Origin: a bacterium
Lineage (GTDB): Bacteria > Patescibacteriota > Minisyncoccia > Phycocordibacterales > UBA2100
Direction: 5' to 3'
Length of the DNA: 64,000 bases
Assembly: GCA_038128225.1 (NCBI GenBank)
Contig: JAYPJF010000002.1
Span: forward strand, 191,751 to 255,750
Below, piece after piece: positions 33,679-60,194 of the stretch. Below the pieces are notes generated by a model. That model did not search any database. It was given only the letters and a program-made list of their open reading frames with translations, and was not told where the DNA came from. A program made the position numbers and the translations under genes. Every line of letters begins with the position of its first letter. Position 1 is the stretch's first letter.

Positions 33679-33933
33679 CTACAAAGAGAGCTGCCGACGA
33701 AATGGCTCGAACCCGATAAGCGCGAGCCCCAAAAGCATTGTTGCCGGCAAGGGCACCCCATAAAAACCGGCCGGCCCGAGGTACAATAAGTCGATCAGTA
33801 GCCCAACGCCGATTACTTCCCATGCGCGATATCGAAGCGTGAGTATTCCTGAAAGAATAAGTGGGAGCCATGGCGGCGCAAGAAAAACACTCGCACATGC
33901 GCCAATCGTGAGCACTACGCGAATGCGCGTCAT
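33679..33933 (-). CDS. mreD: Rod shape-determining protein MreD (short form)
   Basis: Small polytopic membrane protein lying between mreC and the PBP2 gene. Confidence 0.55.
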   Translation of the reverse strand: MTRIRVVLTIGACASVFLAPPWLPLILSGILTLRYRAWEVIGVGLLIDLLYLGPAGFYGVPLPATMLLGLALIGFEPFRRQLSL

Positions 33934-34712
33934 AAGCGAGGCGTGAGTAGAACAACGTTGATTGACTGAATTGCAAACGGTAAGCCAATCAGTACTTTTT
34001 TCGTAGGTTCTGCAGAATCTTCAGTGATCGCTGCAATAGTGCCCACAGTCGCATACGTATCAGCGAGCAGTACGGTTTGGCCAATGTTCGCCGCGAGTGC
34101 CCGCGGTACCAGTATTTCAGCATTGTTGCTACCTCGTCCTACCATTTCAAGATTTGCGGCTCCGGGTATATCAACGGTCGTTTTAACTCCTGGCGCAGTA
34201 AACAATTGCACCAGCGCGGTAGACTCATGCACTTCAACAACACTCCCAATCGCGATGCGCTCACCAACAAGCACAACATCATCACTATGAACTTCAGAAC
34301 CCGGCGCAAACGCAACAACGATCGTCCCGTACGGTGAATGCGCGGGATTTGATACTACACGTGCACCGATGCCAGAAGATGTCGCTGTTTGCATACGCAA
34401 CAATTCGCGTAGCGCCGCGTTTTCTGTTTTAAGTACATCATTTACCACAATACTCCACTGTGCATTCTTGACCTCCTCTTGTAGCCGCGCATTATCCGCT
34501 ATAAGCGACGCCTCGTTCGTTAGTAGTTTCGAGTTTCCGACCGCTTGAACTGCAGAGGCATATGAGCTCCACAACACTGTGGCACCAGTGCGCGCAGCGC
34601 CGCGCGCCAGGTCGCCCCAAAAAAAGACCGTGAACGACAGTACGCCAATAGCCAAAATCGCAACGAGCGCTTGCGTACGTTCTGGTTTTCTATTGGGTAG
34701 GTACGATCTCAT
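33930..34712 (-). CDS. mreC: Rod shape-determining protein MreC
   Basis: N-terminal TM helix, coiled coil and MreC beta domain. Position between mreB and mreD. Confidence 0.8.
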   Translation of the reverse strand: MRSYLPNRKPERTQALVAILAIGVLSFTVFFWGDLARGAARTGATVLWSSYASAVQAVGNSKLLTNEASLIADNARLQEEVKNAQWSIVVNDVLKTENAALRELLRMQTATSSGIGARVVSNPAHSPYGTIVVAFAPGSEVHSDDVVLVGERIAIGSVVEVHESTALVQLFTAPGVKTTVDIPGAANLEMVGRGSNNAEILVPRALAANIGQTVLLADTYATVGTIAAITEDSAEPTKKVLIGLPFAIQSINVVLLTPRL

Positions 34713-35769
34713 CGTCAGAAGTTAGCAAAGATTCACGATACTGTTCCAAGTCGTCGAGAATTGATGCGGTACCGCGAACCACCGCAGTAAGCGGATCCTC
34801 TGCTACACGCACAGTAACACCAAACACTTCTGTAAGCAGTACAGGAAGCCCCCGCAAAAGCGCTCCACCCCCTGCCAGGTATACTCCCCGCTGCATAACA
34901 TCGGAGAGTACCTCAGGCGGCGTCGCTTCAATTGTTTCTTTTATGGCATCAACAAGCTCTTCAATCGAATGTAAAATTGCATGTCTCACATCGCGGTCAG
35001 TTACATCAACTTCGCGCGGCAACCCGGAAACCAAATCACGCCCCCGCACCTTTGTGGTGAGAGGCGCTTCTAATTCTAACACGGACCCCACATTGATTTT
35101 TACCTCTTCTGCTGTTTTTTCACCGATGACCAATTTAAATTCGTTCCTGATATGCGCAATAATGTCGGTGTTTAATCGATCACCCGCAATGCGTATGTTC
35201 CGCGCACCGACGAGCCCCCCGAGGGAAACTATGCCGATGTCAGTGGTTCCACCACCAATGTCAATCACCATACTTCCTGTCGGAGCATGCACCGGCAATC
35301 GAATGCCGATCGCCGCTGCCATAGGTTCTTCAACGATATACACTTGCCGTGCGCCAGCGTTGTGCGCCGCGTCACGAACAGCTCGCACTTCTACCGAGGT
35401 GATCCCGGACGGCACACCAATAACGACCCGCGGCCCAAGTAGTTTAGTGTGTTTATCTTGCGCTTTGTGGAGAAGATACGAGAGCATTTCTTCAGTGATT
35501 TCGAAATCAGAGATGACTCCGTCAATCACCGGCCGTACCGCGTCAATGTGTGGCGGGGTGCGCCCGAGCATTTCTTTCGCTTGGGTGCCAACCGCAACTA
35601 CCTGGCCGGTTTTTCGATTAATTGCAACAATCGAGGGTTCGTTGATAACAATACCGCGTCCTTTCACATACACGAGCGTGTTTGCAGTCCCGAGATCAAT
35701 GCCGATATCGTTAGAAAACGGCGCAAGCACCCGATCGAGCCATCGTCCAACTGTGCGTCGTCTGCTCAT
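34690..35769 (-). CDS. mreB: Rod shape-determining protein MreB
   Basis: GIDLGTANTLVYV phosphate-1 and DIGGGTTD phosphate-2. Full actin fold. Confidence 0.92.
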   Translation of the reverse strand: MSRRRTVGRWLDRVLAPFSNDIGIDLGTANTLVYVKGRGIVINEPSIVAINRKTGQVVAVGTQAKEMLGRTPPHIDAVRPVIDGVISDFEITEEMLSYLLHKAQDKHTKLLGPRVVIGVPSGITSVEVRAVRDAAHNAGARQVYIVEEPMAAAIGIRLPVHAPTGSMVIDIGGGTTDIGIVSLGGLVGARNIRIAGDRLNTDIIAHIRNEFKLVIGEKTAEEVKINVGSVLELEAPLTTKVRGRDLVSGLPREVDVTDRDVRHAILHSIEELVDAIKETIEATPPEVLSDVMQRGVYLAGGGALLRGLPVLLTEVFGVTVRVAEDPLTAVVRGTASILDDLEQYRESLLTSDDEIVPTQ

Positions 35770-39935: not shown

Positions 39936-40946
39936 TTATCTTTTGGAAATAACCGCCTTTTTATATACGTCGAGGTGTTTGATTGCCTCGCCTGTTCCCT
40001 TCGCAACACAATATTGTGGATCTTTTGCGATACGCGCTTTCACTCCCGTGCGCCGATAAACTAATTCAGCAAAATGGCGCAACTGCGAGGAACCACCAGT
40101 CATAATAATGCCCTGGTCGATAATATCGGCGGAAAGTTCGGGAGGGGTTTCTTGCAGCACGTCTTTCATTGCGCCAATCATCTGCCGCAACTCTTTACTT
40201 ATCGCTCGTACTACTTCATTTGTTCCCAACTCAACTGAACGCGGAAGGCCGGTGAGATAGTCGCGCCCTTTCACCTGCATGGTCAACTCTTCTTCAAGCG
40301 GCACCGCAGAACCGATCGTGATTTTAATATTTTCTGCCATCTTGTCGCCAATCGCGATGTTATGCGTTTTCTTCACATAATCTGCGATTGCATGATCAAT
40401 GCGGTTCCCTGCACACTTTACTGACGTTGAAGCAACGATGCCTCCAAGCGAGATCACCGCAACATCGGTCGTTCCGCCACCAATATCAACCACCATATGC
40501 CCGCGCGCTTCATAAATAGGAATCCCCGCGCCGATTGCGGCGAGGATTGGTTCTTTCACCACAAACGCTTCACGCGCGCCTGCTTTCGTTGCAGCCTCCA
40601 CAACCGCGCGCCGCTCAGTTGATGTCACCCCTGCCGGTACTGAAATAAGCACTTCGGGTTTAAAAAAATTAAATCGCCCGAGCGCTTTTCCCATGTAATA
40701 GCGGAGCATCGCTTCGGTGACACGGTAGTCTGCAATAACTCCGTCTTTCATTGGTCGATACGCGATGATGTCGTCAGGCGTGCGCCCTATCATCTCTTTT
40801 GCCTCGTTCCCTACGGCCAAAATCTTGTTGTCTTTCGACACCGCGACTACCGACGGCTCGTTGAGCACGATGCCTTTGCCAGGAGAAAAAACGAGTACCG
40901 TGGTGGTACCGAGGTCAATGCCGAGCTTTGGATTGAGCCGAAACAC
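39936..40946 (-). CDS. MreB-like actin homolog (second paralog)
   Basis: GIDLGTTTVLVF and DIGGGTTD motifs. GTG start at 40946 chosen because a strong terminator hairpin sits inside the longer ATG-started ORF. Confidence 0.8.
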   Translation of the reverse strand: MFRLNPKLGIDLGTTTVLVFSPGKGIVLNEPSVVAVSKDNKILAVGNEAKEMIGRTPDDIIAYRPMKDGVIADYRVTEAMLRYYMGKALGRFNFFKPEVLISVPAGVTSTERRAVVEAATKAGAREAFVVKEPILAAIGAGIPIYEARGHMVVDIGGGTTDVAVISLGGIVASTSVKCAGNRIDHAIADYVKKTHNIAIGDKMAENIKITIGSAVPLEEELTMQVKGRDYLTGLPRSVELGTNEVVRAISKELRQMIGAMKDVLQETPPELSADIIDQGIIMTGGSSQLRHFAELVYRRTGVKARIAKDPQYCVAKGTGEAIKHLDVYKKAVISKR

Positions 40947-40965
40947 TGGAGCATTGTAGGAGAGA

Positions 40966-41003
40966 TTGCAAAAAATGAAAGCCGCCCACGTCCGTGGGCG
41001 GCT
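40966..41003 (-). terminator. Rho-independent terminator (minus strand) for the gene at 41014-41268
   Basis: agccgcccacg-tc-cgtgggcggct 11-bp stem followed on the minus strand by TTTCATTTTTTG. Confidence 0.7.
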
Positions 41004-41013
41004 CTTGAAAAAA

Positions 41014-41268
41014 TCACTCTTTCCCCTCACCTACACTCCGATGCTTCATACGTGCCGCCTTAAGGGCATACCCCTGGGCTTGGTCTAGATGCACTTTCGC
41101 ACCAAGCGCGTATCCTTCCGCGATTGCATCCATGCCTGCCTTCTTAAGACTCGCGACCTGCAGTAAACTTTCAGCCCAACAAAGCAGTTGAAATCCTGCG
41201 AGATCAACATACTCCTCGTAACCAGGTTTGGCTTTCTTTGCTGATGCCCGTTTTGACTTTCGCGCCAT
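41014..41268 (-). CDS. Hypothetical small basic protein
   Basis: ORF with Lys/Arg-rich N-terminus and its own terminator. Confidence 0.35.
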   Translation of the reverse strand: MARKSKRASAKKAKPGYEEYVDLAGFQLLCWAESLLQVASLKKAGMDAIAEGYALGAKVHLDQAQGYALKAARMKHRSVGEGKE

Positions 41269-45040: not shown

Positions 45041-45113
45041 TCCGCGGTAGCTCAGTCGGTAGAGCGGCTCGCTGTTAACGAGTTGGTCGTAGGTTCGAAT
45101 CCTACCCGCGGAG
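45041..45113 (+). tRNA. tRNA-Asn (anticodon GTT); CCA is encoded at 45114-45116
   Basis: TCCGCGG/CCGCGGA acceptor, anticodon loop CTGTTAA and T-loop GGTTCGAATCC. Confidence 0.85.
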
Positions 45114-46814
45114 CCAGTTAGGAATAGAGGCGGCGAAAGCTGCCTCTTTCCTTTTGGTGTAGCCCTTCTTTTCAGGTTCGAGCGTAGCAAGTAGCTGTTT
45201 CTGGTCCCGAAGCTCGTTTTCAATGAGCAAATACGGGTGCAGCCTTTCAATGCTTAGTTTTTTGTCCTTAAGGGTTAGGTTCGAGCCGATGGTTGAAAAT
45301 ATCTCCCGTTTCTTCTGTAACGGAGCGTCTTCGTTGAAATGTCTTTTCGCAAAGGCACAGAAATTGAACGTACGTTCAGCAACGGCGAGGTCATGGTCAA
45401 ACTTCTCTCTAGTACCACCCATTTCTTTTTCAATGCGCGTTCGCTCCGTGACTAAAGCTTTTTTCTCTTGAGCAAATTCATCGGGGGTATACAGCTCGTG
45501 GTGAGAATTCTGTGGTGAGGTAAATATCTTGCTCAAATTAGCAAGCCTTGTTTGGCAGTCATCATATGCCGCCTGAAGAGACACGCGCACCGTCTTCTCT
45601 TCTTTAGTAGAGGTCTTCTGCTTTTCCTGAAGGTAATCGAGGGCTAAGGTTAGGTAATCCTCATCAATGGTAATTTTCTCAAGCTCCTTGTTGAATTGTG
45701 ATTCTAGGTCTTCTACACGCACATGCTTTTGCGTGCAGTCCCGATTCTTTTTCTTGGTGCAGTGATAGTAAACATATTTCAAAATGACAGGATTCTGCAT
45801 TTCGGAAACGTCAGTCAAACATTTCGGGCAATCAGTCCTGTTTTGACTTGAAAACTTGAATTTGCAGTTTGAGCAAATAATCTGATTTTTCTCTTCAGCC
45901 GTGATGGTCGAATCACATTCACCGCAGCGCATTAGACCTGTGAAAGCGAACTCGTGGAGCTGCATTCGAGGCTTACCTTTCTTGCCTAAAAGAAGCTGCG
46001 CACGCTGATACTCCTTTTCAGTAATCATTGGAGGATGATTACCTTTTATCATTTTCTCTTCGCCAGTTTCAGGGTCTGTCCAAGGAAAATAGCCGTAATA
46101 AAAAGGGTCTTTTAGGATGTTGTACATGTGGCTCATCGTAGGAGGATTGCCACCAATCTTCCTGTGCTTGAGGGTTCTCAAGCCCCACTCGTTTATTGCA
46201 ATGTCACGAATCTTGGAAACAGGATAGCTTCCCGTAAGAAAGAGGTCCCATATTTTTCTCACCAACTCAAAACGTTCTGGGTCCGCAGCAATAGTTTTGC
46301 TGCCTTTTTCAGTGCCAACGTTGATATATCCAATCGGACCACCTGAAGGTCGCCAACCGCGTTGAGCTTTACTGTTCAAACCACGTTTAACAACTCTCGA
46401 AAGTCGCATGACGTAATCTGTCGCACGACCACTCTCTATACTCATCAGAAGCCCCGCGTCCTGCGGATAATACGAGCGTGTAGGAGTTTTTATAACTTTA
46501 ATAACCTCATTCTGCAGCATCCACTGGAGCCTGCCGCTATCAATGGGATTTCGAGAAAGACGGTCTACGTCCCAGCAAATTAGCGCGTTTGCCTCTTCGC
46601 GCTCGATACGCTCAAGCATTTGATTAAAGACACTTCGACCAGGGGCTTTCGCACTGCGCTCTTCAGTAAAAGGTTTTGCGACCAACACCAAACTCTCTCG
46701 CTCGCACTGCTTTTTGAGCGCTCCGATTTGGTCGTCTATGGATGCAATCTGGCGTTGAGAATCCTCGGAACTTTTACGACAGTATGCAAAGAATTTAAGA
46801 GTTTCCGTTTTCAT
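45102..46814 (-). CDS. Large serine recombinase (resolvase/invertase N-terminal domain, recombinase domain, zinc ribbon)
   Basis: YCRKSSEDSQRQ catalytic Ser motif. About 570 aa with a C-terminal Cys-rich zinc ribbon and coiled coil. Confidence 0.85.
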   Translation of the reverse strand: MKTETLKFFAYCRKSSEDSQRQIASIDDQIGALKKQCERESLVLVAKPFTEERSAKAPGRSVFNQMLERIEREEANALICWDVDRLSRNPIDSGRLQWMLQNEVIKVIKTPTRSYYPQDAGLLMSIESGRATDYVMRLSRVVKRGLNSKAQRGWRPSGGPIGYINVGTEKGSKTIAADPERFELVRKIWDLFLTGSYPVSKIRDIAINEWGLRTLKHRKIGGNPPTMSHMYNILKDPFYYGYFPWTDPETGEEKMIKGNHPPMITEKEYQRAQLLLGKKGKPRMQLHEFAFTGLMRCGECDSTITAEEKNQIICSNCKFKFSSQNRTDCPKCLTDVSEMQNPVILKYVYYHCTKKKNRDCTQKHVRVEDLESQFNKELEKITIDEDYLTLALDYLQEKQKTSTKEEKTVRVSLQAAYDDCQTRLANLSKIFTSPQNSHHELYTPDEFAQEKKALVTERTRIEKEMGGTREKFDHDLAVAERTFNFCAFAKRHFNEDAPLQKKREIFSTIGSNLTLKDKKLSIERLHPYLLIENELRDQKQLLATLEPEKKGYTKRKEAAFAASIPNWLRG

Positions 46815-46815
46815 A

Positions 46816-47067
46816 TCACCTCAAAAGAGAACGAATTTTTCCTGTAAGCTGCTGTAACTTAGTCTCAAGCTGAACAACATATTCCAAAAAAGAATCGTCC
46901 CGAAAGTACACACCGAAACATTTGGAGCATGCGTATTTTTCAGTACCCCAAATCCTCTTAAGTTTACAGGAAAGACAAGGTTTTTTCATGGCAATTTTGC
47001 TTGCTTTGTAATATGTGCTGCCAAGCTGCCAACCTGATTCCTTAAGGAAAGAAAAACAACTTGGCAA
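46816..47067 (-). CDS. Small zinc-finger protein (CxxC...CxxC)
   Basis: 83-aa ORF with two CxxC pairs, directly upstream of the recombinase. Confidence 0.35.
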   Translation of the reverse strand: MPSCFSFLKESGWQLGSTYYKASKIAMKKPCLSCKLKRIWGTEKYACSKCFGVYFRDDSFLEYVVQLETKLQQLTGKIRSLLR

Positions 47068-47082
47068 TTTGGCAATGGATTA

Positions 47083-48225
47083 TTAAATATCATCAAAAAT
47101 CGAATTTTCTTCTGTGGGAGATACTATCCCTGCAAGGGCTTCCTCCTCTTTAGGCAAGAAGTAGGAATTCTGCTTACCAACCTTTACGGAATTAATTTTG
47201 CCTAAAAGAACTAGCTCTCGAAGCGCCTGGCGAACATTCTTTTGACCCGCATCTTTTTTAGTGATTTCAAGTAGCTCGTTAGTTGTTCGCATCTCGCCTG
47301 AAGAGAGAACATCCAATATCAGGGATTTGGCGGTCTCTTTCTTGTTTGCATCTTCTTCAATTTCACCTAGGTAGTCGAACTTAAAGACAGTACGACCGTC
47401 CTCCACGCCATCGGTAATCTTCACCGCAAAAGGCTTTATTTCGCTCCCTAGGCGATTTTTACGCTGATAGAAGTGTGTCTCCCCAGACACTTCATCTTTC
47501 CTGAGCATGAGGAGTGTTTCTACACTCGCTACCTTGTCTTGAGAACCAAAAAGCTGCTCTTTTTTTGGTATTTTTCCTTCAAACTGCTGATTCTTGCGTA
47601 GGTGTTCTGTGAATATGACCGACACGCCAGAATTTTTCAGAATCTGGAACTTCTGGAAGAAATGCCGTACTTCTTCTGCCTTTTCTTCGCGCATCCCGCC
47701 TGTGGCAGGACGGAAGGTATCAATGATGAGAACATCAATTTTGTTCTTAAGGATATAGTTCAGAAGCCAACGGTATTTCTTATCTTCTTCGCCCGTACCG
47801 TTCAAATTAAAATCATCCTCATTGAGGATAAAAAGGTTTTCATTTGAAGGGTCAAATTTCATCATTCGACCTCGCCTCTGCATTTCGCTCACTGCCATTT
47901 CCAGATTTACATACAGAACTCTGCATTTTTCAGTTTTGAATCGTGTATCCCCAAACCAGGGTGTACCTGTTGTAAGGCACTCCGACAGATGCATTATGGC
48001 TATAGACTTTCCTTCACCAGAAACAGAAGCCACGATTGATACGCCTTCTTTTGGGAAAAGGTCTTTAACTAGCCATCGGTCATCTGGGAAAGAAAGCTTA
48101 TCTATGTCCGCCCAAAGCACAGGTTCAGGCTGTTTGCGTTCCTCGCGCACAAAATCCCATTCGCGCGGTGCGCCACCTAGACTTTCGATATGCTCTTCAA
48201 GCTTTTGCCATTTTTCTTCCTGCAT
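47083..48225 (-). CDS. RecA-like P-loop ATPase of the RepA/AAA_25 type with C-terminal winged-helix
   Basis: Walker A SGEGKS and Walker B DVLIIDT. Domain order typical of plasmid/ICE RepA-like helicase loaders. Confidence 0.55.
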   Translation of the reverse strand: MQEEKWQKLEEHIESLGGAPREWDFVREERKQPEPVLWADIDKLSFPDDRWLVKDLFPKEGVSIVASVSGEGKSIAIMHLSECLTTGTPWFGDTRFKTEKCRVLYVNLEMAVSEMQRRGRMMKFDPSNENLFILNEDDFNLNGTGEEDKKYRWLLNYILKNKIDVLIIDTFRPATGGMREEKAEEVRHFFQKFQILKNSGVSVIFTEHLRKNQQFEGKIPKKEQLFGSQDKVASVETLLMLRKDEVSGETHFYQRKNRLGSEIKPFAVKITDGVEDGRTVFKFDYLGEIEEDANKKETAKSLILDVLSSGEMRTTNELLEITKKDAGQKNVRQALRELVLLGKINSVKVGKQNSYFLPKEEEALAGIVSPTEENSIFDDI

Positions 48226-48406
48226 ACACTTTCGGCAGAATTACCTCGTCTGCCTTAAGGTGGCTCGTAATTGAACCGACCAGACAAACTAATTTTTCAA
48301 AATACTCAAGAGCCATCTCGTCAGAGATGGTTGTACGGTTTTTTATTTCGTAGAGCGCCTTAAACCTCTTGATGTATTTTTCTTTTTCGACCATGTGATG
48401 CGGCAT
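48197..48406 (-). CDS. Hypothetical small protein
   Basis: ORF only; overlaps the ATPase gene start. Confidence 0.25.
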   Translation of the reverse strand: MPHHMVEKEKYIKRFKALYEIKNRTTISDEMALEYFEKLVCLVGSITSHLKADEVILPKVYAGRKMAKA

Positions 48407-48867
48407 CTGCCGTATCTTGAAAATAGCAATCCGTTATATAAAAGAGAATCCCAATTCTAGGATTCTTTTTTAAAAAATAATGTAGGAAAAAAATAATTAG
48501 TATCAACTCAATATGTCTTAAATATTGGGTCAGTACTAAAACACCTCAACTTAATATCTGGTCAGTATTTTCTTAGTACTAAGCACTTATGCACAGATTT
48601 TCCATGTTCCAAAATACTTTCTTCCTTAAGGCAAGAGTGATTGCTATTTGGGACGAAAATCAGGCATAATGGAAAGACAACTGAATATTGGCTCGCAAGA
48701 GCAGCGACCTAAACCGTCTGAAAAGGCGGCATGGTCGAGGAATCGCGTTCAACATAAAAAACCCGTTATTAGGGCGTTGAACGCGTTATGGAGGGAAACT
48801 TCCATAGAGGTCTTCGGACCTTCCTAGTAGCGGGCTTTTTGTTTGGTTGCTTATCAAAGAAACCAAA

Positions 48868-49119
48868 TATATGTCATTTCTTTTACATGCGTTGCAGGCA
48901 CTAGGTCTGTATCTTCTTTACGGCAAAATCTCTGCCCTTTTATGGTGGGGATTGCTTGCCCTTTTCGTGGCTTTCTATTTTGCAGGAAAAACCTACTACA
49001 ACGTATCGGATTCAGACGACCAAAAGGTAAAAGCTTTTTGGTATCAGATTCGGTCTCTCGTATTTATTACTGATATCGTTTCAGTGTTAGCTCTATATGG
49101 CTATTTCTTCCTACGATAA
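48868..49119 (+). CDS. Hypothetical small membrane protein
   Basis: Three hydrophobic helices. Lies immediately upstream of the 804-aa gene. Confidence 0.3.
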   Translation, partial: YMSFLLHALQALGLYLLYGKISALLWWGLLALFVAFYFAGKTYYNVSDSDDQKVKAFWYQIRSLVFITDIVSVLALYGYFFLR

Positions 49120-49173
49120 TGGATTTTTACTGTATGCCCCAAAAGTCTTCATTTTTGCTAAAATTAATACCTA

Positions 49174-51588
49174 ATGAAAGGCACCGCAAACGTAAAACTT
49201 AGACCTCTGAAATTTGCCTTTTTGGTGAATCCAAATGATTCTAAAAGTCTTGCGCGTGCTTTGGAACTCAACGCTTCTTTATGGGGTGGCAGTTACAACC
49301 CGATAATTCCAACTTTCAATCGTATTCCAGCAGTTTGGCGTAAACGTGGAGATGTTTTTGGACACACAGGTAAAACCATCCTCAAGGGGTATATTGATGC
49401 CTTTAACCCAGACTTTCTGGTTCCACTGGGTGACTGTAAAAAAATGAAGCTTGATGATTTTGGTCGTGATGTAGTTGATGATAAAAATCTTGAGGTAAAC
49501 ACCGCAGACGGAACACCAAATTACGGTGTGGGCATTTTTGAAGTGCTGAAAGGCTTTTTCGATAAAGAACTGAAATTCAAAAGACGATATCCAATAAATT
49601 TTATTTTTCCTATTCTTCCTAAAAAGAATAGGCTTTTTTATCAGAGCATCTTTGGATTACCTTCTAAAGAAATACAAGATGTTCTTGTTGAACATTGGCG
49701 AGAACCGCTTGGCGCTACAGATAAAGAGATAGGCTTTGAGAACTATCTTACTGAAATGCTCGCTTATTATCCAAGAAAGCTGATGCGGTTTGAGATTGAA
49801 GCTTCAAATCGTTCGGGTTGGCAGAAAGGTGAATGCATATTTTTAATGGACGCAAGCAATAATCACGACATTATTGATTATTGGAACCTAAGAGCTAATG
49901 GCTGGTCGGTGCTGCCCGTTGCCATTCAAGGCATGCATCTTGATGCGGTAAAAAACGAGGCTCAAAAATTCATCGAGGAGACTTCGGGTGTTAGTAGGCA
50001 CAATACTCAAATTTATTATCACGCCAATTTGATGAAGGCGCGAAGTGTAGATGAGAAGCATGTAAAAGATTTTGCCGCCTCGCTTTCTCCTAAGCCTGAC
50101 GAAAAGGCACGAGGTTCACGATTCTCAATTCAAGCTTGGTATCCGCGAATGTGGGATGAGTGGGCACGCCATAAAGATGGAGTTGGATTTTGTGAAGTCG
50201 AGAGCAAGTCTAAAAGCTATGACTTTAATGATGAGTCTGATGAGGTTTCGGTAAAAACAGTAGACCCTAAATTTGCTTTTAGGTTCGGAGGACACAACAG
50301 TTATTTTAGGTTTGCGAATGACGTTGCGACTAATAACTACAGTTACGATGACCTATATGCTGATGTGATACCTGAAGGTGGAGAACATCTCACCCGCGCA
50401 CTTAGCTCAATTCATTTTGATGAATGGCGTTTTTCCAAAAGAGGAGCCACTTACATGTCCAAATTTAAAGGTTGGACCATTCATATAAAAGTTCCGAAAG
50501 CAGAAGATGTTTTTACAGCCTGGATGAAAGACCAAGGTCTAGAAATAAACCTGTCTGCTCCAGGGAAAATAGCCAAGCAGATGATAAAACACCTGGGAGG
50601 CATACACGGTACAAATACCCTCGCTAACGAGCACATGATTGCTCTCCTGAAGAACATGGAGTCGGGCAAAGAAATGAATAAGGACCAGTTTTGGGGTGAA
50701 ATATCCAAAGTGGCTTCAACCAGAACCTTTAGGCAAGATGCATCAGAACTACTGAAACATTACGTTGAGAAAAAAATGTTTCAGCTAGGAGTTACTCTTC
50801 AGTGTCCAACCTGCACGCACAGTTCTTGGTACGACATTAAAGCTCTTAATTATGTCGTTACATGTACGAACTGCTTGGAGGAGTTTAATATCCCCACCCA
50901 TTCGCCTAATGATATTAAATGGGCGTACAAAACAAGCGGACCTTTTGGACTTCCTAAAAGAGCAGAAGGCGTGTATCCCACACTTCTAACTTTGCGCATT
51001 TTCTCTTCTCTTTTTCACCATAGCCCAATAACTCCGATGCTTAGTTTTGAAACTAAAATCAAAAATGTGGCGATGGAAGTTGACCTTGGTTTATTTTTCA
51101 GGAAATCTCAATTTAGAGAGGAGGACGAAACACGAGTTATTTTTGCTGAATGCAAATCTGAAAACAGCTTTGCTAAAAGTGATATAGATAAGATGAAATT
51201 AATCGCCGAAAAGTTCCCTGGTGCTGTATTGGTATTTGCGACTCTTAAGGAAGAGCTAAACTCAAAAGAAGTTGCTCTACTCAAACCACTTGTAAATAAA
51301 TGCCGCCGATATTACAAAAACGAGGAGCCTTATAACCCAGTAATGATTCTCACCAAGACAGAATTGTTTTCTTCTTGGGATTTGAATCAGACCTGGAAAG
51401 AAAAAGGCGGTAAATATGCCCCCTTCGGCGACAGACACTATTACGGCGATGAGTTGCTTAGCGTGTGTGATGCAACGCAGCAACTATATTTAGGCATGAA
51501 GCCTTGGAATGATTTTATACACGAGCAGTTTGAAAAGAGGAGGAAAAAGAAAGCATTAGCAACACCAGGAACGGCGCTAAACCCGTGA
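49174..51588 (+). CDS. Large orphan protein (804 aa) with central CxxC...CxxC zinc ribbon and C-terminal PD-(D/E)xK-like motif
   Basis: CPTCTHSSWYDIKALNYVVTCTNC zinc ribbon. EVDLGLFF...RVIFAECKS fits hhD...ExK. No match to any family I recognise. Confidence 0.45.
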   Translation: MKGTANVKLRPLKFAFLVNPNDSKSLARALELNASLWGGSYNPIIPTFNRIPAVWRKRGDVFGHTGKTILKGYIDAFNPDFLVPLGDCKKMKLDDFGRDVVDDKNLEVNTADGTPNYGVGIFEVLKGFFDKELKFKRRYPINFIFPILPKKNRLFYQSIFGLPSKEIQDVLVEHWREPLGATDKEIGFENYLTEMLAYYPRKLMRFEIEASNRSGWQKGECIFLMDASNNHDIIDYWNLRANGWSVLPVAIQGMHLDAVKNEAQKFIEETSGVSRHNTQIYYHANLMKARSVDEKHVKDFAASLSPKPDEKARGSRFSIQAWYPRMWDEWARHKDGVGFCEVESKSKSYDFNDESDEVSVKTVDPKFAFRFGGHNSYFRFANDVATNNYSYDDLYADVIPEGGEHLTRALSSIHFDEWRFSKRGATYMSKFKGWTIHIKVPKAEDVFTAWMKDQGLEINLSAPGKIAKQMIKHLGGIHGTNTLANEHMIALLKNMESGKEMNKDQFWGEISKVASTRTFRQDASELLKHYVEKKMFQLGVTLQCPTCTHSSWYDIKALNYVVTCTNCLEEFNIPTHSPNDIKWAYKTSGPFGLPKRAEGVYPTLLTLRIFSSLFHHSPITPMLSFETKIKNVAMEVDLGLFFRKSQFREEDETRVIFAECKSENSFAKSDIDKMKLIAEKFPGAVLVFATLKEELNSKEVALLKPLVNKCRRYYKNEEPYNPVMILTKTELFSSWDLNQTWKEKGGKYAPFGDRHYYGDELLSVCDATQQLYLGMKPWNDFIHEQFEKRRKKKALATPGTALNP

Positions 51589-51830
51589 AGACCTCGAACT
51601 TGACACATTTTGACAACCCTCCAGTAGACAAAGTAAAATATGAGGACAGTATGATGACGCGAGAGAAATTTCTGACCCTTAAGGAAGTTGCGAAAATTCT
51701 GCGTGTCAGCGAGAGGTCAATTTTCCGTTATATTCACGGCGGCAAGTTGAAGGCAAGCAAAATTGGGTACTGGCGAATACGCGAAAAGGACCTTGAGGAC
51801 TTTCTCGCAAAGAACCGCGCTTCAAAGTAA
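51585..51830 (+). CDS. Excisionase/MerR-like HTH (HTH_17) DNA-binding protein
   Basis: LTLKEVAKILRVSERSIFRYI helix-turn-helix. GTG start overlaps the upstream stop. An alternative Met start lies near 51651. Confidence 0.55.
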   Translation: MKTSNLTHFDNPPVDKVKYEDSMMTREKFLTLKEVAKILRVSERSIFRYIHGGKLKASKIGYWRIREKDLEDFLAKNRASK

Positions 51831-51834
51831 CAAT

Positions 51835-52767
51835 ATGAAAACGGCAACTGCATCAAAAATGACAATCAACAAGAAACCTGCAAAGAAGGCGGCAAAAAAG
51901 ACGTACAAAATTATTGACCTTTTTGCGGGTATCGGCGGCTTTCACATTGCTTTCCACAATCTCGGCGTAGAAACAGTTTTTGCGAGCGAATGGGACGAGC
52001 ACGCACGTAAAACTTACGAGCACAATTTCAAGAAAATTACGCCTTCTCTTTTTGAGAACGGAAACTTTGCAGGCGACATCACAAAGGTAGATGCGGCTTC
52101 AATCCCTGATTTTGATATTTTGACCGGCGGTTTCCCTTGCCAGCCGTTCAGTCAGGCGGGTTTCAAAAAAGGTTTTTCTGATGTGCGCGGGACACTTTTC
52201 TTTGACATCGTTCGCATCATTGATACAAAACGCCCAGTCGCTTTCTTTATTGAAAATGTACGTCATCTCCTCAACCACGATGACGGCAAAACCTTTGCGA
52301 CAATCAAAAAAGTAATTGAGGAGGACTTGGGGTACTCTTTCCACGCAAAAATAATAAAAGCGTCCGACTTCGGCTTGCCGCAACACCGACCTCGCCTGTA
52401 TATGGTCGGTTTCCGTGACAAAAAAATACCTTTCAATTTCCCTGAACCGATACCGCTTCAAGCGAGTATGTCTGATGTATTCGGAGCACCCGTGAACAAA
52501 AAAGTGGGTTATACCCTCCGACTTGGCGGCCGCGGTTCTGGTCTGCACGACCGCAGAAATTGGGATACTTACCTCGTCAAAGGAAAGGCCCGCAGATTGT
52601 CACCGAAAGAAGGAAAGAAAATGATGGGCATACCAGACGATTTTGAGTTTCCTGTGTCAGAAGCACAGGCAATGAGGCAACTCGGCAACAGTGTCGCTGT
52701 AAATGCGATACAGGCCACTGCCGCGGAAATTATCAACTCACTCAACAACTACTATGGCAAAAGGTAA
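51835..52767 (+). CDS. DNA (cytosine-5)-methyltransferase
   Basis: Motif I DLFAGIGGF, motif IV GFPCQPFS and motif VI ENV. C-terminal QLGNSV. Confidence 0.9.
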   Translation: MKTATASKMTINKKPAKKAAKKTYKIIDLFAGIGGFHIAFHNLGVETVFASEWDEHARKTYEHNFKKITPSLFENGNFAGDITKVDAASIPDFDILTGGFPCQPFSQAGFKKGFSDVRGTLFFDIVRIIDTKRPVAFFIENVRHLLNHDDGKTFATIKKVIEEDLGYSFHAKIIKASDFGLPQHRPRLYMVGFRDKKIPFNFPEPIPLQASMSDVFGAPVNKKVGYTLRLGGRGSGLHDRRNWDTYLVKGKARRLSPKEGKKMMGIPDDFEFPVSEAQAMRQLGNSVAVNAIQATAAEIINSLNNYYGKR

Positions 52768-53833
52768 TAAAGGCGAATGGAGTGAGTTCTATACGTTCCT
52801 GAAACTGCTTGCAGAAAAGCAGTTGAACGGTGCGGACGAAAATCTGCAAAAGATAGAGGATATTTTCTATCCGATTTTGAAAGTAATCCGCGAAGAAGCA
52901 ACGGGCAGAATGGATTACGAACTTGCCGAAAACAACAAAGTGAAGGTTGTGCAAACAGGTACAGAAGTCGCCCTCGTAGATGCTTCGGACCTCAAGTCGA
53001 AAGTGGTCCAGATATTTCAGACAATACGCGACAATCAGGATACTACTTTTGAAATCCCAGAAGCGGACGAACTGATGACTCGGTTCCATTCAAAGAAGTT
53101 GAGCGCTGGTAACTCTCACAAGGAAGACATCACTCTCAAAATTCACGACCGTATTACGGGCGCAATGCCGGAAGTCGGGTTCAGCATCAAATCAATGCTC
53201 GGTGCGGCATCCACACTTCTCAACCCTTCCGCCGCAACCAACTTTATTTACAAAATCTCGGGCCTTGATGAGAGTAAGATAGACGAAATAAACGCAATTG
53301 ATACTCGCTCAAAAGTACGTGACCGTCTTTCAGCAATTGTTGCGGCTGGCGGCAGTTTCTCCTATGCGGGCATCAGTTCAGATACGTTCACAAAAAACTT
53401 GAGGCGGGTGGATACGGTTCTGCCTGAAATAATGGCGCAGCTTCTTCTTGCCTTCTATCTCGGTAAGGGCAACGGGTTGCCAGACCTTATTTCAAATTTG
53501 GGTGACGGAGAAACCAACATTCTCACCTTCACGCTGGACCGCTCCGATTACGAGTTCAAGGTCAAAGGTCTCTTGCACAATGTAGCCCTCGGAATGGTGC
53601 CCGATACCGCTTGGGACGGCCTTATACGCGCTCACGGGGGCTATATCATCGTCAGGGAGGACGGAGAGGTGGTCTGTTACCACGTCTACAACGCAGATGC
53701 TTTCAGGTCTTACCTGTACAAGAACACCCGATTTGATACCCCCAGCACGACCCGCTACGGGTTCGGGAAGGTCTACAAGGAAGGCAACGACCTTTTCATG
53801 AAACTGACCCTGCAAATCAGGTTCATCAGATAA
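52754..53833 (+). CDS. Type II restriction endonuclease (HpaII-family-like) paired with the C5-methyltransferase
   Basis: Overlaps the methyltransferase stop by 14 nt. N-terminus MAKGNKGEWSEFYTFLKLL resembles R.HpaII-family proteins as I recall them. Confidence 0.5.
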   Translation: MAKGNKGEWSEFYTFLKLLAEKQLNGADENLQKIEDIFYPILKVIREEATGRMDYELAENNKVKVVQTGTEVALVDASDLKSKVVQIFQTIRDNQDTTFEIPEADELMTRFHSKKLSAGNSHKEDITLKIHDRITGAMPEVGFSIKSMLGAASTLLNPSAATNFIYKISGLDESKIDEINAIDTRSKVRDRLSAIVAAGGSFSYAGISSDTFTKNLRRVDTVLPEIMAQLLLAFYLGKGNGLPDLISNLGDGETNILTFTLDRSDYEFKVKGLLHNVALGMVPDTAWDGLIRAHGGYIIVREDGEVVCYHVYNADAFRSYLYKNTRFDTPSTTRYGFGKVYKEGNDLFMKLTLQIRFIR

Positions 53834-53837
53834 AAAT

Positions 53838-54251
53838 ATGGCGGACCGCATCTCACAATCACAGCGGTCAAAAAATATGGCCGCAGTCAAAAGCCGCGGC
53901 AATAAAACCACGGAGCAAAAACTTCTCGTTCTTTTGAGAGAAAATAAAATTACAGGTTGGCGCAGGCACTACAAGAAACTTGCCGGCACACCCGACTTTG
54001 CCTTTCCTAAACGGAAGGTGGCGGTCTTCGTTGACGGCTGTTTCTGGCACGGGTGCGAATGCTCAAGTATTCCTAAAACAAACAGAAAGTTTTGGAAAGA
54101 GAAGATAAATGGAAATATCAAAAGAGACAAACTCGTGGTTTCACTGCTACGTAAAAAGGGATGGTTTCCAATCCGCATCAAAGAACATGAATTCAAAAAT
54201 AATAAAATACCCACCAACCTTTTAAACAGACTTGGTGTTAAATACGGATGA
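53838..54251 (+). CDS. vsr: Very short patch repair endonuclease Vsr
   Basis: FVDGCFWHGC motif and about 137 aa. Located downstream of the C5-methyltransferase and endonuclease. Confidence 0.85.
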   Translation: MADRISQSQRSKNMAAVKSRGNKTTEQKLLVLLRENKITGWRRHYKKLAGTPDFAFPKRKVAVFVDGCFWHGCECSSIPKTNRKFWKEKINGNIKRDKLVVSLLRKKGWFPIRIKEHEFKNNKIPTNLLNRLGVKYG

Positions 54252-56103: not shown

Positions 56104-57975
56104 TTATTCGCCAATGAGTATAAGACGCGGAGCAAGTGTCATATTTGAGGCATCGACCGCTCCTTCTTTTGAGTAATATTCGATGCGACCGTTTTGATTC
56201 TCGTTTGTTTTTCTAATGAGCCACTCCGTGCGCCCATTGAGCACATCCGCGGTCACATCCCACCTAACTTCCCCTGTTTGGTTGTTAGTGTGAGTCACAG
56301 GCGAGGCTGTCGCCGCACCATACGTGCCCCCGTTCCATTGTGGATTACAATTGGCGACTTGATTTTCAATCGCAGTATCGATCGCGCAATTCCAAGTCAC
56401 ACCACTGCCAGTTCCTCGAGTTGCCTGCGCGGGTGGGAGACCTTCACCTTTGCCATTTCCCTCTGCAAATGTGGCAACGAGCGGATGTGCATCAACTGTC
56501 CGGCCAGTTCCCCAGTTGTTTCCATTTTCTGCAATCGTAAGCACAAGCTCTGCGGAGACATTTTCATGCTCTGTGAGAAACGCCGCAACTTCTGAAGCAT
56601 CGAAGCCGACGAGTGCGCGGTTATTGCCATCACTACGCACCATAAGATGCGGATTTGCGCCTTCGTTGCGATTACTCTGCCCAGCGCGCACGAACGCATC
56701 GGCGTTTGTTGTAAGCGTCACGCTTTCAAGCGGATTAAAGATGCGAGCGACAATCTCTCGGGGACTTGTGCCTTGTTGTGACTCCCATGTGGCTACGAAC
56801 ACGCCGTCTTGGAGTTGCGCCACCGGCTGAACAGTTGCACGCTGCGGTCCAGTTGAATACACGTTCATTTGGAAATCTGTGCCGATCTGCTGCCCGTCGA
56901 GATCTAAGAACTGTCCGTACACACCCAAATTACTTCCATCACGCTCATACACGTTCCACGTGAGAAGAATGGTTGAAGGATCATACAAGACCGCGCTGAA
57001 TCGTTCTTTTTGATTCGTCTCATCAGCGGTCACCAGAAATTCCGAGGTAAGCGGTGTGGCATTTTCATCGTAAAGCCGACCATAAACACCATGATCATCC
57101 TGCATGCGCAGGGCGATGAAGTTACCGTTGGGCAACGCGAGAACAAAACTTCGCCCTTCGTCACCACTGGTATTTTGATTCACCTGAAATTGCGTCCCCA
57201 CAAGAGTACCGTCATTTTCCATAAGCTGTCCGTAGACACCACCGGCGCTGCCATCTTCCTGCCACGAATTCCAAACCATTATGATTCTGCCGTTCGTAAG
57301 CTGTGTAATTGTCGGCCCTTCCTTCTGCCCGTTGCCACTCACTAGTATCTCGGTGCCAATCGGCGTGCCGTTTTCCGCATAGATGCGTGCTCGTACATCA
57401 GCCGGACTACCAACAGCTTTGTCGGTCCACGCTGCGATGAAGTTTCCACTCTGAAGAGGCACCACCGTCGAGCCAAATTGGTCATCCTCACTGTTCGTGT
57501 TTACGTGGAATTCTGATCCGACTTTGTTTCCATACTCGTCAAAGAGCTGTGCAAATATGCCGTAATCACTGCTAGTTCCGCCGTACTCTTGACCAATCGA
57601 CTCAGTGAGCACAACAAATCCGCCGTTTGCAAGCGGCGCAACATGCGAAGGAAACTGATCGCCAGAGGTAAATGTATTGATCTGAAATTCAGAACTTATT
57701 GCATTTCCTGCTCGATCGAAAAGTCGCCCATACCCCCCGTAACCGCTACCGTCCTGCCCAAGAGAAGCCCAAATGACGACAAAATCTCCGTTCGCAAGCG
57801 TTGCAACCTTTGGTTCGATTTGGTCGTTGTCGGTAGATGCGTTCACGACAAACTCGGCTCCACCATTTGCCGATTGCGCCTGTGCAATTAATGGAGAGAG
57901 AAACATGACCACCGCGAGTAATGAAAAAACAAAAAACTCTACGCAGAATTTCTGCGCAAAAAGCGAGGTATTCAT
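56104..57975 (-). CDS. Secreted protein with about eight tandem ~55-aa repeats (probable beta-propeller) plus a C-terminal domain
   Basis: Signal peptide and a repeating F.VN..T.GDQ..P.V..L.NG.FVV.W.S...DGS..GVYGQLFD unit. Confidence 0.5.
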   Translation of the reverse strand: MNTSLFAQKFCVEFFVFSLLAVVMFLSPLIAQAQSANGGAEFVVNASTDNDQIEPKVATLANGDFVVIWASLGQDGSGYGGYGRLFDRAGNAISSEFQINTFTSGDQFPSHVAPLANGGFVVLTESIGQEYGGTSSDYGIFAQLFDEYGNKVGSEFHVNTNSEDDQFGSTVVPLQSGNFIAAWTDKAVGSPADVRARIYAENGTPIGTEILVSGNGQKEGPTITQLTNGRIIMVWNSWQEDGSAGGVYGQLMENDGTLVGTQFQVNQNTSGDEGRSFVLALPNGNFIALRMQDDHGVYGRLYDENATPLTSEFLVTADETNQKERFSAVLYDPSTILLTWNVYERDGSNLGVYGQFLDLDGQQIGTDFQMNVYSTGPQRATVQPVAQLQDGVFVATWESQQGTSPREIVARIFNPLESVTLTTNADAFVRAGQSNRNEGANPHLMVRSDGNNRALVGFDASEVAAFLTEHENVSAELVLTIAENGNNWGTGRTVDAHPLVATFAEGNGKGEGLPPAQATRGTGSGVTWNCAIDTAIENQVANCNPQWNGGTYGAATASPVTHTNNQTGEVRWDVTADVLNGRTEWLIRKTNENQNGRIEYYSKEGAVDASNMTLAPRLILIGE

Positions 57976-58158
57976 AAAAATGTGTGCAAACTTATTAAAG
58001 GCGTACCAAACCCTAATAAAGCTGTCTTCAGTGTAGCATGAATTTTGCTGTGTTTTGAAACATAGCGGACAAAGTGGTTGTTGATTCCGGGCATTGTTTT
58101 TTCCTTAATAATATGTAGACTTTGCGCGGACCATAAGGTTCATAGGTAAACGAGAGGA

Positions 58159-58899
58159 TTGAAAATGAAGGAAGGGGTCCCAGCGTTTGCGTGGAGTAAC
58201 TACGCAGAACTTGGTCGCAACTTGTACCCTGGCAGAGGTATCGTGGTAGGCCGCGATGAAACCGGAAAATATTTAATCCAAGTGTATTGGGTTACAGGGC
58301 GAAGCGAAAAAAGCAGAAATCGCATTTTCGACGCGGACTACGATGCGGGGCGTCTTTTCACTGAAGCAGCGGACGCCGCGAAGATGATGGACCCGAGCCT
58401 CGTCATCTACAACGCGATGCGCGAACGGGGGTCTTTTTATATCGTTGGCAATGGAGACCAGACCGACACCGTTGCGGATTCTCCGCACTTACCACACCTG
58501 AACACTGCGCTACAAGGACGCATATACGAGCCGGACTCACCCAACTTTACACAGCGCATTACTGCGGTGTGCGTTCTGCAGGCACGCCCATGCGTTCAAA
58601 TGTCCATCCTGCGGAAATCGGTGATCGGGGAAACGTGCGACCGAATGTTCTATGAGTTCGTACTGAAACCGGGTTGCGGTTATTGCATTATGACCTATGC
58701 GGGTGACGGTGATCCCCTGCCTCCGTTCCGTGCAGAGCCTCTTCTGATGCCGCTTTGCGGCAGTATGATAGATATTGCGAACGCGTACTGGAATGCGCTT
58801 AACGAAAGCAATCGTGTGTCGCTTGCGGTGAAGTTTGTGAAAATCCGCAGCGGGCGATCAACTATTCACATCATCAACAAGTACGAAAAAGTCGGGTAG
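58159..58899 (+). CDS. purO: IMP cyclohydrolase PurO-like (archaeal type)
   Basis: YPGRGIVVGRDETGKYLIQVYWVTGRSEKSRNR...VIYNAMRERGSFYIVGNGDQTDTVADS resembles the PurO family N-terminal pattern as I recall it. Confidence 0.5.
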   Translation: MKMKEGVPAFAWSNYAELGRNLYPGRGIVVGRDETGKYLIQVYWVTGRSEKSRNRIFDADYDAGRLFTEAADAAKMMDPSLVIYNAMRERGSFYIVGNGDQTDTVADSPHLPHLNTALQGRIYEPDSPNFTQRITAVCVLQARPCVQMSILRKSVIGETCDRMFYEFVLKPGCGYCIMTYAGDGDPLPPFRAEPLLMPLCGSMIDIANAYWNALNESNRVSLAVKFVKIRSGRSTIHIINKYEKVG

Positions 58900-59052
58900 A
58901 AGTCTCTGGCACATTGGAAGCCGCAGCGCGCACTGCGGCTTTTTGCTATATTATGTAAGTATCAGTTGGCGTTTTGTGGGTTCATGTGTGCTGCGCGTCC
59001 TTTCGTACTGTACTCTTTGAGAAACTCAAACTATGCTACCATTGCGGACACA

Positions 59053-59646
59053 ATGAAAAACGAAATCGAAGCGACCTTTGTCAACATCGACCACGAGTTT
59101 ATGCGCCAAAAGTTACGAGAATTTGGAGCTCAACTCGTGCGTCCGGAGCGTCTTAACCGGCGCACGATTTTTGACTACGAAGATTTGCGTCTCGATAAGA
59201 AAGCTGCATGGATACGCCTCCGAGACGAAGGTGACTCTGTTACGCTCACCTTTAAGCAAAGAAATGGTGAGACTATTGACGGCATGAAAGAAATAGAGGT
59301 GGTAGTAAGCGACTACGAGAAAACGAAAGCCTTGTTGCTTGCGACAGGCCTATCGGTAAAAGCCGAACAAGAAACTAAGCGCGAACTTTGGGAACATGAG
59401 GGTGTCCAAATCATGCTCGACACCTGGCCATGGCTCAACCCCATCATTGAGATCGAAGGGCAAAGTGAGGAGCATGTGAAAGCATTTTCCGAGCGCCTTG
59501 GTTTCAATTGGAGCGAGGCTGTTTTTGATAGTGCCGATAAACTATATCAACTTGTTTTCGATGTAAGTCGGACAGAAATATCTACCTGCCCAATACTATT
59601 TGGCCCCGTCCCCGTGTGGTTGGAGAAAAAGCGTCGCATCGGGTAA
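59053..59646 (+). CDS. CYTH-like (triphosphate tunnel metalloenzyme / class IV adenylyl cyclase-like) domain protein
   Basis: N-terminal NEIEATF beta-strand with paired Glu and roughly 190 aa. Match is weak. Confidence 0.4.
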   Translation: MKNEIEATFVNIDHEFMRQKLREFGAQLVRPERLNRRTIFDYEDLRLDKKAAWIRLRDEGDSVTLTFKQRNGETIDGMKEIEVVVSDYEKTKALLLATGLSVKAEQETKRELWEHEGVQIMLDTWPWLNPIIEIEGQSEEHVKAFSERLGFNWSEAVFDSADKLYQLVFDVSRTEISTCPILFGPVPVWLEKKRRIG

Positions 59647-59714
59647 GCGAATGTTTTAGCAGTGTACCCGCGCATGTGCTGACGTTTCCGCTGAAAAACG
59701 GTACAATACTGCCA

Positions 59715-60194
59715 ATGCGCACAAAAAATATAATCGAGGCCGCAGTCGCCATTATAGTGTGCGAAGCTGCTGGGATTGCGGGATCGTTCTTTACAGCCCC
59801 CTCCATTCCCACGTGGTACGCCGACCTTATCAAAGGACCGCTCAATCCGCCTTCTTGGATTTTTGCACCCGTATGGACCACGCTCTATGCTCTTATGGGT
59901 ATTGCCGCATACCTTGTATGGAAACAAGGCATGCATCGCCGCGACGTGCAGATCGCTCTCGTTCTTTTCGGCGTGCAACTTGTCCTCAACATGCTCTGGT
60001 CTTACATCTTTTTCGGACTTCGCGCACCAGGACTTGCCTGTGTTGAAGTTGTTTTGTTGTGGATTACAATTGCTGCCACACTGTGGGCGTTTGCGAAAAT
60101 TTCCAAACCCGCTGCGTGGCTCCTCGTACCGTACATCGCATGGGTCAGCTTTGCCGCTTACCTCAACTATACGCTCTGGATACTTAATTCGTGA
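59715..60194 (+). CDS. tspO: TspO/MBR family tryptophan-rich sensory protein
   Basis: TWYADLIKGPLNPPSWIFAPVWTTLYALMGIAAYLVW and five TM helices. Confidence 0.85.
   Translation: MRTKNIIEAAVAIIVCEAAGIAGSFFTAPSIPTWYADLIKGPLNPPSWIFAPVWTTLYALMGIAAYLVWKQGMHRRDVQIALVLFGVQLVLNMLWSYIFFGLRAPGLACVEVVLLWITIAATLWAFAKISKPAAWLLVPYIAWVSFAAYLNYTLWILNS

Follow-up and report, generated by a model that had tools for sequence, protein, structure and literature searches.

The purO locus

The window, by which we mean the whole 64-kb stretch of DNA analyzed here (64,000 nucleotides), carries on its plus strand an intact open reading frame for a PurO-like protein (58159-58899, 246 aa when counted from TTG in the ORF map). 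The gene and its immediate surroundings comprise the following features:

56104-57975, minus strand, gene for a predicted secreted protein of 623 aa, which has a hydrophobic segment at the N-terminus, repetitive beta-propeller-like repeats and, at the C-terminus, a DNRLRE/CBM96 domain
57976-58151, no strand assigned, intergenic region and presumed promoter, between the divergent secreted-protein gene (minus) and purO (plus)
58152-58158, plus strand, Shine-Dalgarno-like GAGAGGA, read from the sequence, 6 nt upstream of ATG 58165
58165-58899, plus strand, purO-like gene, 244 aa from ATG, bacterial-type PurO and predicted IMP cyclohydrolase
58916-58945, plus strand, hairpin resembling an intrinsic terminator, with the core GCCGCAG-CGCGCA-CTGCGGC and TTTTT behind it, 17 nt past the purO stop
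58966-59646, plus strand, gene for a CYTH-domain protein, directly downstream of purO, start probably ATG 59054
59616-60194, plus strand, gene for a TspO/MBR tryptophan-rich sensory protein, downstream of the CYTH gene

ATG 58165 is a likelier start of purO than TTG 58159. The latter directly abuts the GAGAGGA motif and is thus disfavoured, whereas the spacing between the motif and the ATG fits a start codon. A gene call in public data on the same sequence (P0001) also places the start of a 244-aa protein at ATG 58165, and an identical 244-aa protein was found in an independent sequencing run (Logan DRR685536), on a 12-kb contig identical to the window. The GC content of purO (0.50) equals the window average. 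The hairpin behind the stop codon has a computed RNA folding energy of -21.5 kcal/mol (z = -2.77 versus shuffled sequences) and was not listed by a simple terminator consensus scan. Since the upstream neighbour is divergent and this terminator-like hairpin follows the stop, the arrangement suggests that purO is monocistronic. A scan of the presumed promoter region (57976-58151) for the sigma-70 consensus gave no match, an Rfam scan of 57900-59100 yielded no riboswitch, ZTP and purine classes included, and nothing else at E ≤ 1, and a riboswitch scan of eight CPR (Patescibacteria) purO loci returned only tRNAs. As to the downstream genes, the CYTH protein resembles a triphosphate tunnel metalloenzyme or a class IV adenylate cyclase.

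Family, fold and active site of the PurO protein

The protein matched PF07826 (IMP_cyclohyd, IMP cyclohydrolase-like) at 128.3 bits, against a gathering cutoff of 28.1 (E = 3.5e-37), and covered positions 1-189 of the 192 in the profile. This significant and nearly full-length match, obtained by the search that the earlier note had proposed, bears out its reading of a PurO-like protein in a bacterial genome. Its description of the N-terminal pattern was likewise accurate: residues ~17-140 align by sequence to archaeal PurO structures, with E = 3.7e-5 for 2ntk when the single window sequence was used and E = 2e-12 for 2ntk/1kuu with a 39-member family profile. The same note had called the protein archaeal-type, and this label is not supported. 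Both archaeal equivalog models aligned to the N-terminal half only and scored below their cutoffs (NF003167, 39.4 bits versus 150; TIGR01922 [purO_arch], 32.5 bits versus 158.35), and the protein groups with a bacterial clade that is very large. Its fold is truly that of PurO, yet by the equivalog measure it is no orthologue of the archaeal enzyme.

The breadth of the family is evident from a full HMMER search of 1.84 billion representatives, which retrieved 2,182 homologue clusters at 50% identity with E ≤ 1e-3; 363 of these reached E ≤ 1e-30, nearly all with a length of ~245 aa. With a bacterial branch of this size (>2,000 clusters at 50% identity), a PF07826 match in a bacterium is no evidence of archaeal ancestry or gene transfer. 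That branch was described in silico in 2019 by Cruz et al. (Genome Biol Evol 11:1235, PMC6486802) in 22 genomes of Clostridia, Bacillales, Actinobacteria, Spirochaetes, Fibrobacteres and Epsilonproteobacteria. In that study, bacterial purO co-occurs with a stand-alone AICAR formyltransferase (purV) and anticorrelates with purH, and the bacterial PurO clade is separate from all archaeal PurOs in the tree; Patescibacteria or CPR are mentioned nowhere in the article. Our literature search found neither a paper tying IMP cyclohydrolase to Patescibacteria nor an assay or enzymology of any bacterial PurO.

The purO gene of the window is a new CPR member of this already described group. Its product has the Pfam family, the length (~245 aa), the active-site signature and the invariant residues in common with the bacterial PurOs of Cruz et al. 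2019 and shows 42-48% identity to members from Paenibacillus, Fibrobacter and clostridia; pairing with a stand-alone AICAR formyltransferase (PurV) also occurs in some CPR relatives. The CPR copies differ in forming a clade of their own, mostly outside a pur context, and the copy in the window differs in being apparently monocistronic and flanked by the secreted-protein and CYTH genes. A distinct CPR PurO clade that is usually unlinked to other pur genes thus exists, of which we found no description in the literature searched. Given this clade and its usual lack of pur linkage, the last purine step may be annotated too rarely in CPR genomes by pipelines that search for purH alone.

An AlphaFold2 model built on the 39-member alignment had a pLDDT of 96.3 and a pTM of 0.93. 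Foldseek aligned this model over the whole chain (235-239 columns) with 2ntm, 2ntk and 1kuu at E ~2e-12 and target-normalised TM scores of 0.75-0.78. Its best PDB match was Mth PurO (2ntm/2ntk; TM 0.77, ~20% identity), and the next ones, to the proteasome, taspase and other Ntn-hydrolase folds, had E > 3e-3, so that no other PDB protein came to the level of PurO. The predicted structure is accordingly that of the PurO structural family, with its four-layer alpha-beta-beta-alpha Ntn-hydrolase-like fold.

The closest archaeal counterparts are M. jannaschii MJ0626, M. thermautotrophicus MTH1020 (PDB 1kuu, 2ntk, 2ntl and 2ntm) and T. kodakarensis PurO (PMC6797443), all under EC 3.5.4.10. In common with them, the window protein would have the four-layer fold along its whole chain, as modelled; its N-terminal ~120 residues are homologous, the YxGR, RS, YN, NGxxTD and YExDxxNTPRI motifs are kept, and so are the candidate catalytic Arg, Glu and Tyr. 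It differs from the archaeal proteins in its low identity (~20%) and in missing TIGR01922 and NF003167 by >100 bits, in an extra N-terminal helix of ~20 residues (residues 9-20), in an overall length greater by ~40 residues, and in a C-terminal portion of ~100 residues that is not alignable by sequence. Moreover, Ser24, His76 and Tyr56 of Mth PurO are replaced by Gly47, Gln101 and Ser80/Leu81, respectively. The profile alignment placed the following residues at identical positions:

Mth R25, S26 and R30: window R48, S49 and R53
Mth Y59 and N60: window Y84 and N85
Mth N73, G74, T77 and D78: window N98, G99, T102 and D103
Mth Y103, E104 and D106: window Y123, E124 and D126
Mth N109, T110 and R112: window N129, T131 and R133

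Mth E104 and R30/31 are taken to be catalytic positions, which were reportedly mutated by Kang et al. 2007 (MjR31K and MjE104Q). In the profile alignment, Mth R30, E104 and Y59 fall on R53, E124 and Y84 of the window protein, and these three residues vary little or not at all among 69 bacterial homologues. For archaeal PurO, a mechanism has been proposed in which the side chains of Arg, Glu and Tyr take part (Kang et al. 2007, summarised in PMC6797443). Of the 14 residues in the archaeal active site, 10 are reported to be retained in bacterial PurOs, which also show a signature of their own, in which Ser26 is invariant, Tyr56 is mostly Ser and Ser24 is variable (PMC6486802); the window protein carries this signature as S49 (Ser26), S80 (Tyr56 to Ser) and G47 (Ser24). 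Finally, of the 32 positions without variation in 50 non-CPR PurOs, every one is also unchanged or almost unchanged in 19 CPR PurOs, and the window protein retains them all. A functional shift is therefore unsupported, and at the level of residues there is no sign of a changed function in the CPR PurOs or in that of the window.

Purine genes around purO and the proposed function

To define the genomic context of purO, we compared loci from a scan of species-representative genomes with 12 closer PurO sequences, which yielded 585 relatives, of which 80 loci were kept; the genome of the window itself is not among them. ORFs were called and clustered, cluster identities were confirmed by Pfam, and the neighbourhood was set at 10 kb. 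Within this distance of purO, a PF01808-only AICAR formyltransferase was encoded at 36 of the 61 non-CPR loci, usually together with purD, N, M, L, F, C, S and B. The operon order in Paenibacillus is purB-C-S-Q/L-F-M-N-purV-purO-purD, where the purV-purO pair stands at the position that purH has in the Bacillus subtilis pur operon. This placement and the linkage to PurV provide strong contextual evidence that bacterial PurO is an IMP cyclohydrolase.

CPR loci presented another picture. PurV was found within 10 kb of purO at only two of the 20 CPR loci in the genome scan, L016 (Falkowbacteria) and L022, the latter also with a purN-like gene, and was missing at the other 18; L068 has purC 6 kb from purO. 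Elsewhere in CPR, the neighbours are variable and unrelated to purines (RibD_C, LUD or a transposase), and no conserved partner of purO was found across the CPR loci. Similarly, the gene in the window is surrounded by those for the DNRLRE/CBM96 secreted protein, CYTH, TspO and DUF817, with no pur context at the locus. The arrangement with CYTH and TspO next to purO was common to the identical contig only, with TspO loosely associated in Andersenbacteria as well, where it lies 3 kb from purO (L002), a linkage without wider conservation. A search that started from PurV uncovered more CPR-like PurV-PurO pairs, divergent in L086 and L087 and convergent in L088, as well as a PurV that adjoins a nucleoside phosphorylase without PurO (L089). 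Because the pairs in L086 and L088 stand without other pur genes alongside, a two-step AICAR-to-IMP module is conceivable in some CPR. The CPR PurV (~349 aa) shares 57-66% identity with the full-length PurH of CPR (~535 aa, MGS plus AICARFT) but only ~26% with Paenibacillus PurV. This closer relationship to CPR PurH suggests that, judging by sequence similarity, those CPR lineages that have PurO as well came by their PurV independently, when the cyclohydrolase domain was lost.

Neither purH nor PF01808 nor any other purine-synthesis gene was found in the 64-kb window, where the sole formyltransferase gene is fmt, next to def. A PurV/PurH search with a CPR PurV query gave no match on the source contig of the window among the best 120 of 2,618 matches, which is a weak negative. 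The same search showed that many CPR encode a full PurH, and complete de novo IMP synthesis has been reported for ~32% of 399 CPR MAGs (PMC11608272). Since about a third of these MAGs have the complete IMP module, a functional purine pathway is plausible here.

We thus consider it probable that the window PurO is an IMP cyclohydrolase that converts FAICAR to IMP in the last purine step, encoded by a vertically inherited CPR gene. The protein of ~245 residues would adopt an Ntn-hydrolase-like fold without an N-terminal nucleophile and would cyclise FAICAR (5-formamidoimidazole-4-carboxamide ribonucleotide) to IMP, the final reaction in purine nucleotide synthesis. By analogy with the archaeal enzyme, catalysis would rely on Arg, Glu and Tyr, namely R53, E124 and Y84. 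PurO would replace the IMP-cyclohydrolase (MGS-like) domain of PurH, and its partner, an AICAR formyltransferase, would be encoded elsewhere in the genome as a stand-alone PurV or a PurH. The cyclohydrolase domain of PurH (MGS-like, PF02142; PurH2/PurJ) shares with the window protein the predicted reaction, FAICAR to IMP, but is unrelated in fold and sequence, an analogue rather than a homologue (PMC6797443), and many other CPR genomes rely on full-length PurH in its place. Several observations speak against this assignment: the lack of pur genes across the 64 kb, the rarity of PurV beside purO at CPR loci (2 of 20, versus 36 of 61 outside CPR), the variable neighbours unrelated to purines, and the absence of a purine or ZTP riboswitch upstream.

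An alternative, which we regard as unlikely, is that a CPR PurO without an adjacent PurV acts outside de novo synthesis, the pathway being otherwise lost. Such a role could be the salvage or detoxification of exogenous or host FAICAR/AICAR-type nucleotides, or the cyclisation or hydrolysis of another formamido or ureido nucleotide. The isolated, monocistronic purO of the window, the lack of pur genes throughout its 64 kb, and the 18 of 20 CPR loci with neither PurV nor any other pur gene within 10 kb all fit this idea, and the two-gene PurV-PurO modules of L086 and L088 fit AICAR-to-IMP salvage over a full pathway. Against it, the protein keeps all residues that are invariant in operon-linked PurOs and 42-48% identity to those of Paenibacillus and Fibrobacter, and PurV-paired members lie inside the CPR clade. 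Besides, scattered pathway genes are normal in CPR, and purO is placed in a pur context in 15 of 22 bacterial cases but out of it in the remaining 7 of 22 and in 53 of 59 archaeal ones (PMC6486802). A related reading holds that most Patescibacteria purO genes, the window copy included, are true orphans in genomes that lack both an AICAR formyltransferase and the de novo pathway, and serve host-dependent salvage, such as the conversion of scavenged nucleotides derived from FAICAR or AICAR to IMP, or act on a new substrate. We consider it quite unlikely; if true, the presence of PurO would indicate by what means ultrasmall episymbionts acquire their purines.

Lineage and inheritance of purO

The closest homologues of the window PurO (57-66% identity) come from Moraniibacteriota, Paceibacterota, Andersenbacteria, Saccharibacteria, Staskawiczbacteria and Falkowbacteria. 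A neighbour-joining tree placed it in a CPR clade with Andersen- and Moranbacteria that includes PurV-paired members. The earlier note had also reported a class I LysRS elsewhere in the window, and the gene is indeed present:

29872-31446, minus strand, class I LysRS, PF01921 at 288.6 bits (cutoff 27)

Its best named homologues (56-62% identity) belong to the Patescibacteria group, Kaiserbacteria, Paceibacterota, Ryanbacteria and Parcubacteria. With the nearest homologues of both PurO and LysRS in Patescibacteria, the guess of a CPR lineage made in that note proved right. The two genes had further been taken to indicate an unusual lineage; the CPR part of this claim stands, but both are normal within Patescibacteria, and together they say nothing beyond a CPR genome. 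The locus is otherwise ordinary housekeeping, and the window carries a standard bacterial set of such genes, i.e., those for DnaB, RecR, MnmA, YceG, two MreB, MreC, PBP2, RseP, RRF and def-fmt.

CPR-type PurOs also occur on a contig labelled Nanoarchaeia archaeon (L019, DATJQC010000055.1, 50% identity) and on one labelled Bdellovibrionales (L007, CAZTBI010000002.1, 61% identity). Rather than real cross-domain occurrences, they most likely reflect errors in the binning or labelling of MAG contigs.

The gene order of the window recurs in L090, a metagenomic relative with 65% identity in PurO: aaRS, RseP, RRF, holB, MreB, def, fmt, S30AE and purO. The distance from S30AE to purO is 1.5 kb in L090 versus 14.3 kb in the window, where it holds tRNA-Asn, a serine recombinase, an AAA_25 ATPase, a LOOT RNA, an 804-aa protein and an HpaII-type restriction-modification pair. 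This insertion is an island, and purO is part of the chromosomal backbone; L090 keeps the gene order without the island. In a second relative (P0008), DUF817 and a PAS histidine kinase are encoded near purO, as in the window.

An ancient lateral transfer, the other possibility raised in the earlier note, is not supported by this synteny or by the nesting of the protein in a CPR clade within the bacterial clade, and the gene occupies an ordinary chromosomal position. Lateral acquisition of an archaeal purO, whether recent or ancient, is in our view very improbable. The family was first defined in Euryarchaeota, its solved structures are archaeal only, and L019 bears a CPR-like copy under a Nanoarchaeia label. 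However, the scores of 32-39 bits fall far from the archaeal equivalog cutoffs of 150-158, identity to Mth PurO is ~20%, the CPR clade is nested in a large bacterial clade that stands apart from the archaeal PurOs in the published tree (PMC6486802), the GC content of purO (0.50) matches that of the surrounding chromosome, its position is syntenic in the relative with the 65% identical protein, and the mobile island (~45.1-54 kb) does not include it. That the ORF is left over from a lost purine pathway and is decaying or no longer functional, as the lack of visible partners in the window might indicate, is hardly credible in view of its intact, full-length frame with RBS and terminator, the retention of all invariant residues, the identical protein in the independent run (Logan DRR685536), and the equal length of relatives at 57-66% identity, which indicates purifying selection. 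Our preferred reading remains that purO would be a housekeeping gene, monocistronic and passed on vertically, on a chromosome of Patescibacteria (Parcubacteria-type); the synteny with L090 shows that its inheritance on the chromosome is stable.

The island is a probable integrated mobile element (45041-54000) beside tRNA-Asn (45041-45116), with these components:

45102-46814, minus strand, large serine recombinase, 3′ end overlapping tRNA-Asn
47083-48225, AAA_25 ATPase
48706-48822, plus strand, LOOT RNA motif (RF03000), full-length Rfam match at 75.6 bits (gathering score 46.4)
49174-51588, 804-aa protein with no Pfam match
51763-52767 and 52703-53833, HpaII-type C5-methylase/endonuclease pair

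Its GC content is 0.40-0.47, and the whole stretch of roughly 10 kb is absent from the syntenic L090. No convincing att direct repeat was found for the island beside tRNA-Asn. The LOOT RNA lies between the AAA_25 gene and the 804-aa ORF, inside this low-GC region.

Two further observations concern other parts of the window. Two MreB paralogues (34690-35769 and 39936-41030), MreC (33930-34712) and a PBP2-type transpeptidase (31991-33655), all encoded on the minus strand, make up a full rod-shape machinery in a Patescibacteria genome. Compared by way of L090, the MreB paralogues show ~43% identity to one another, and L090 has the duplication too. An unusual fusion was found near the start of the window:

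2698-3558, minus strand, ATP-cone fused to an Mrr-type restriction endonuclease catalytic domain
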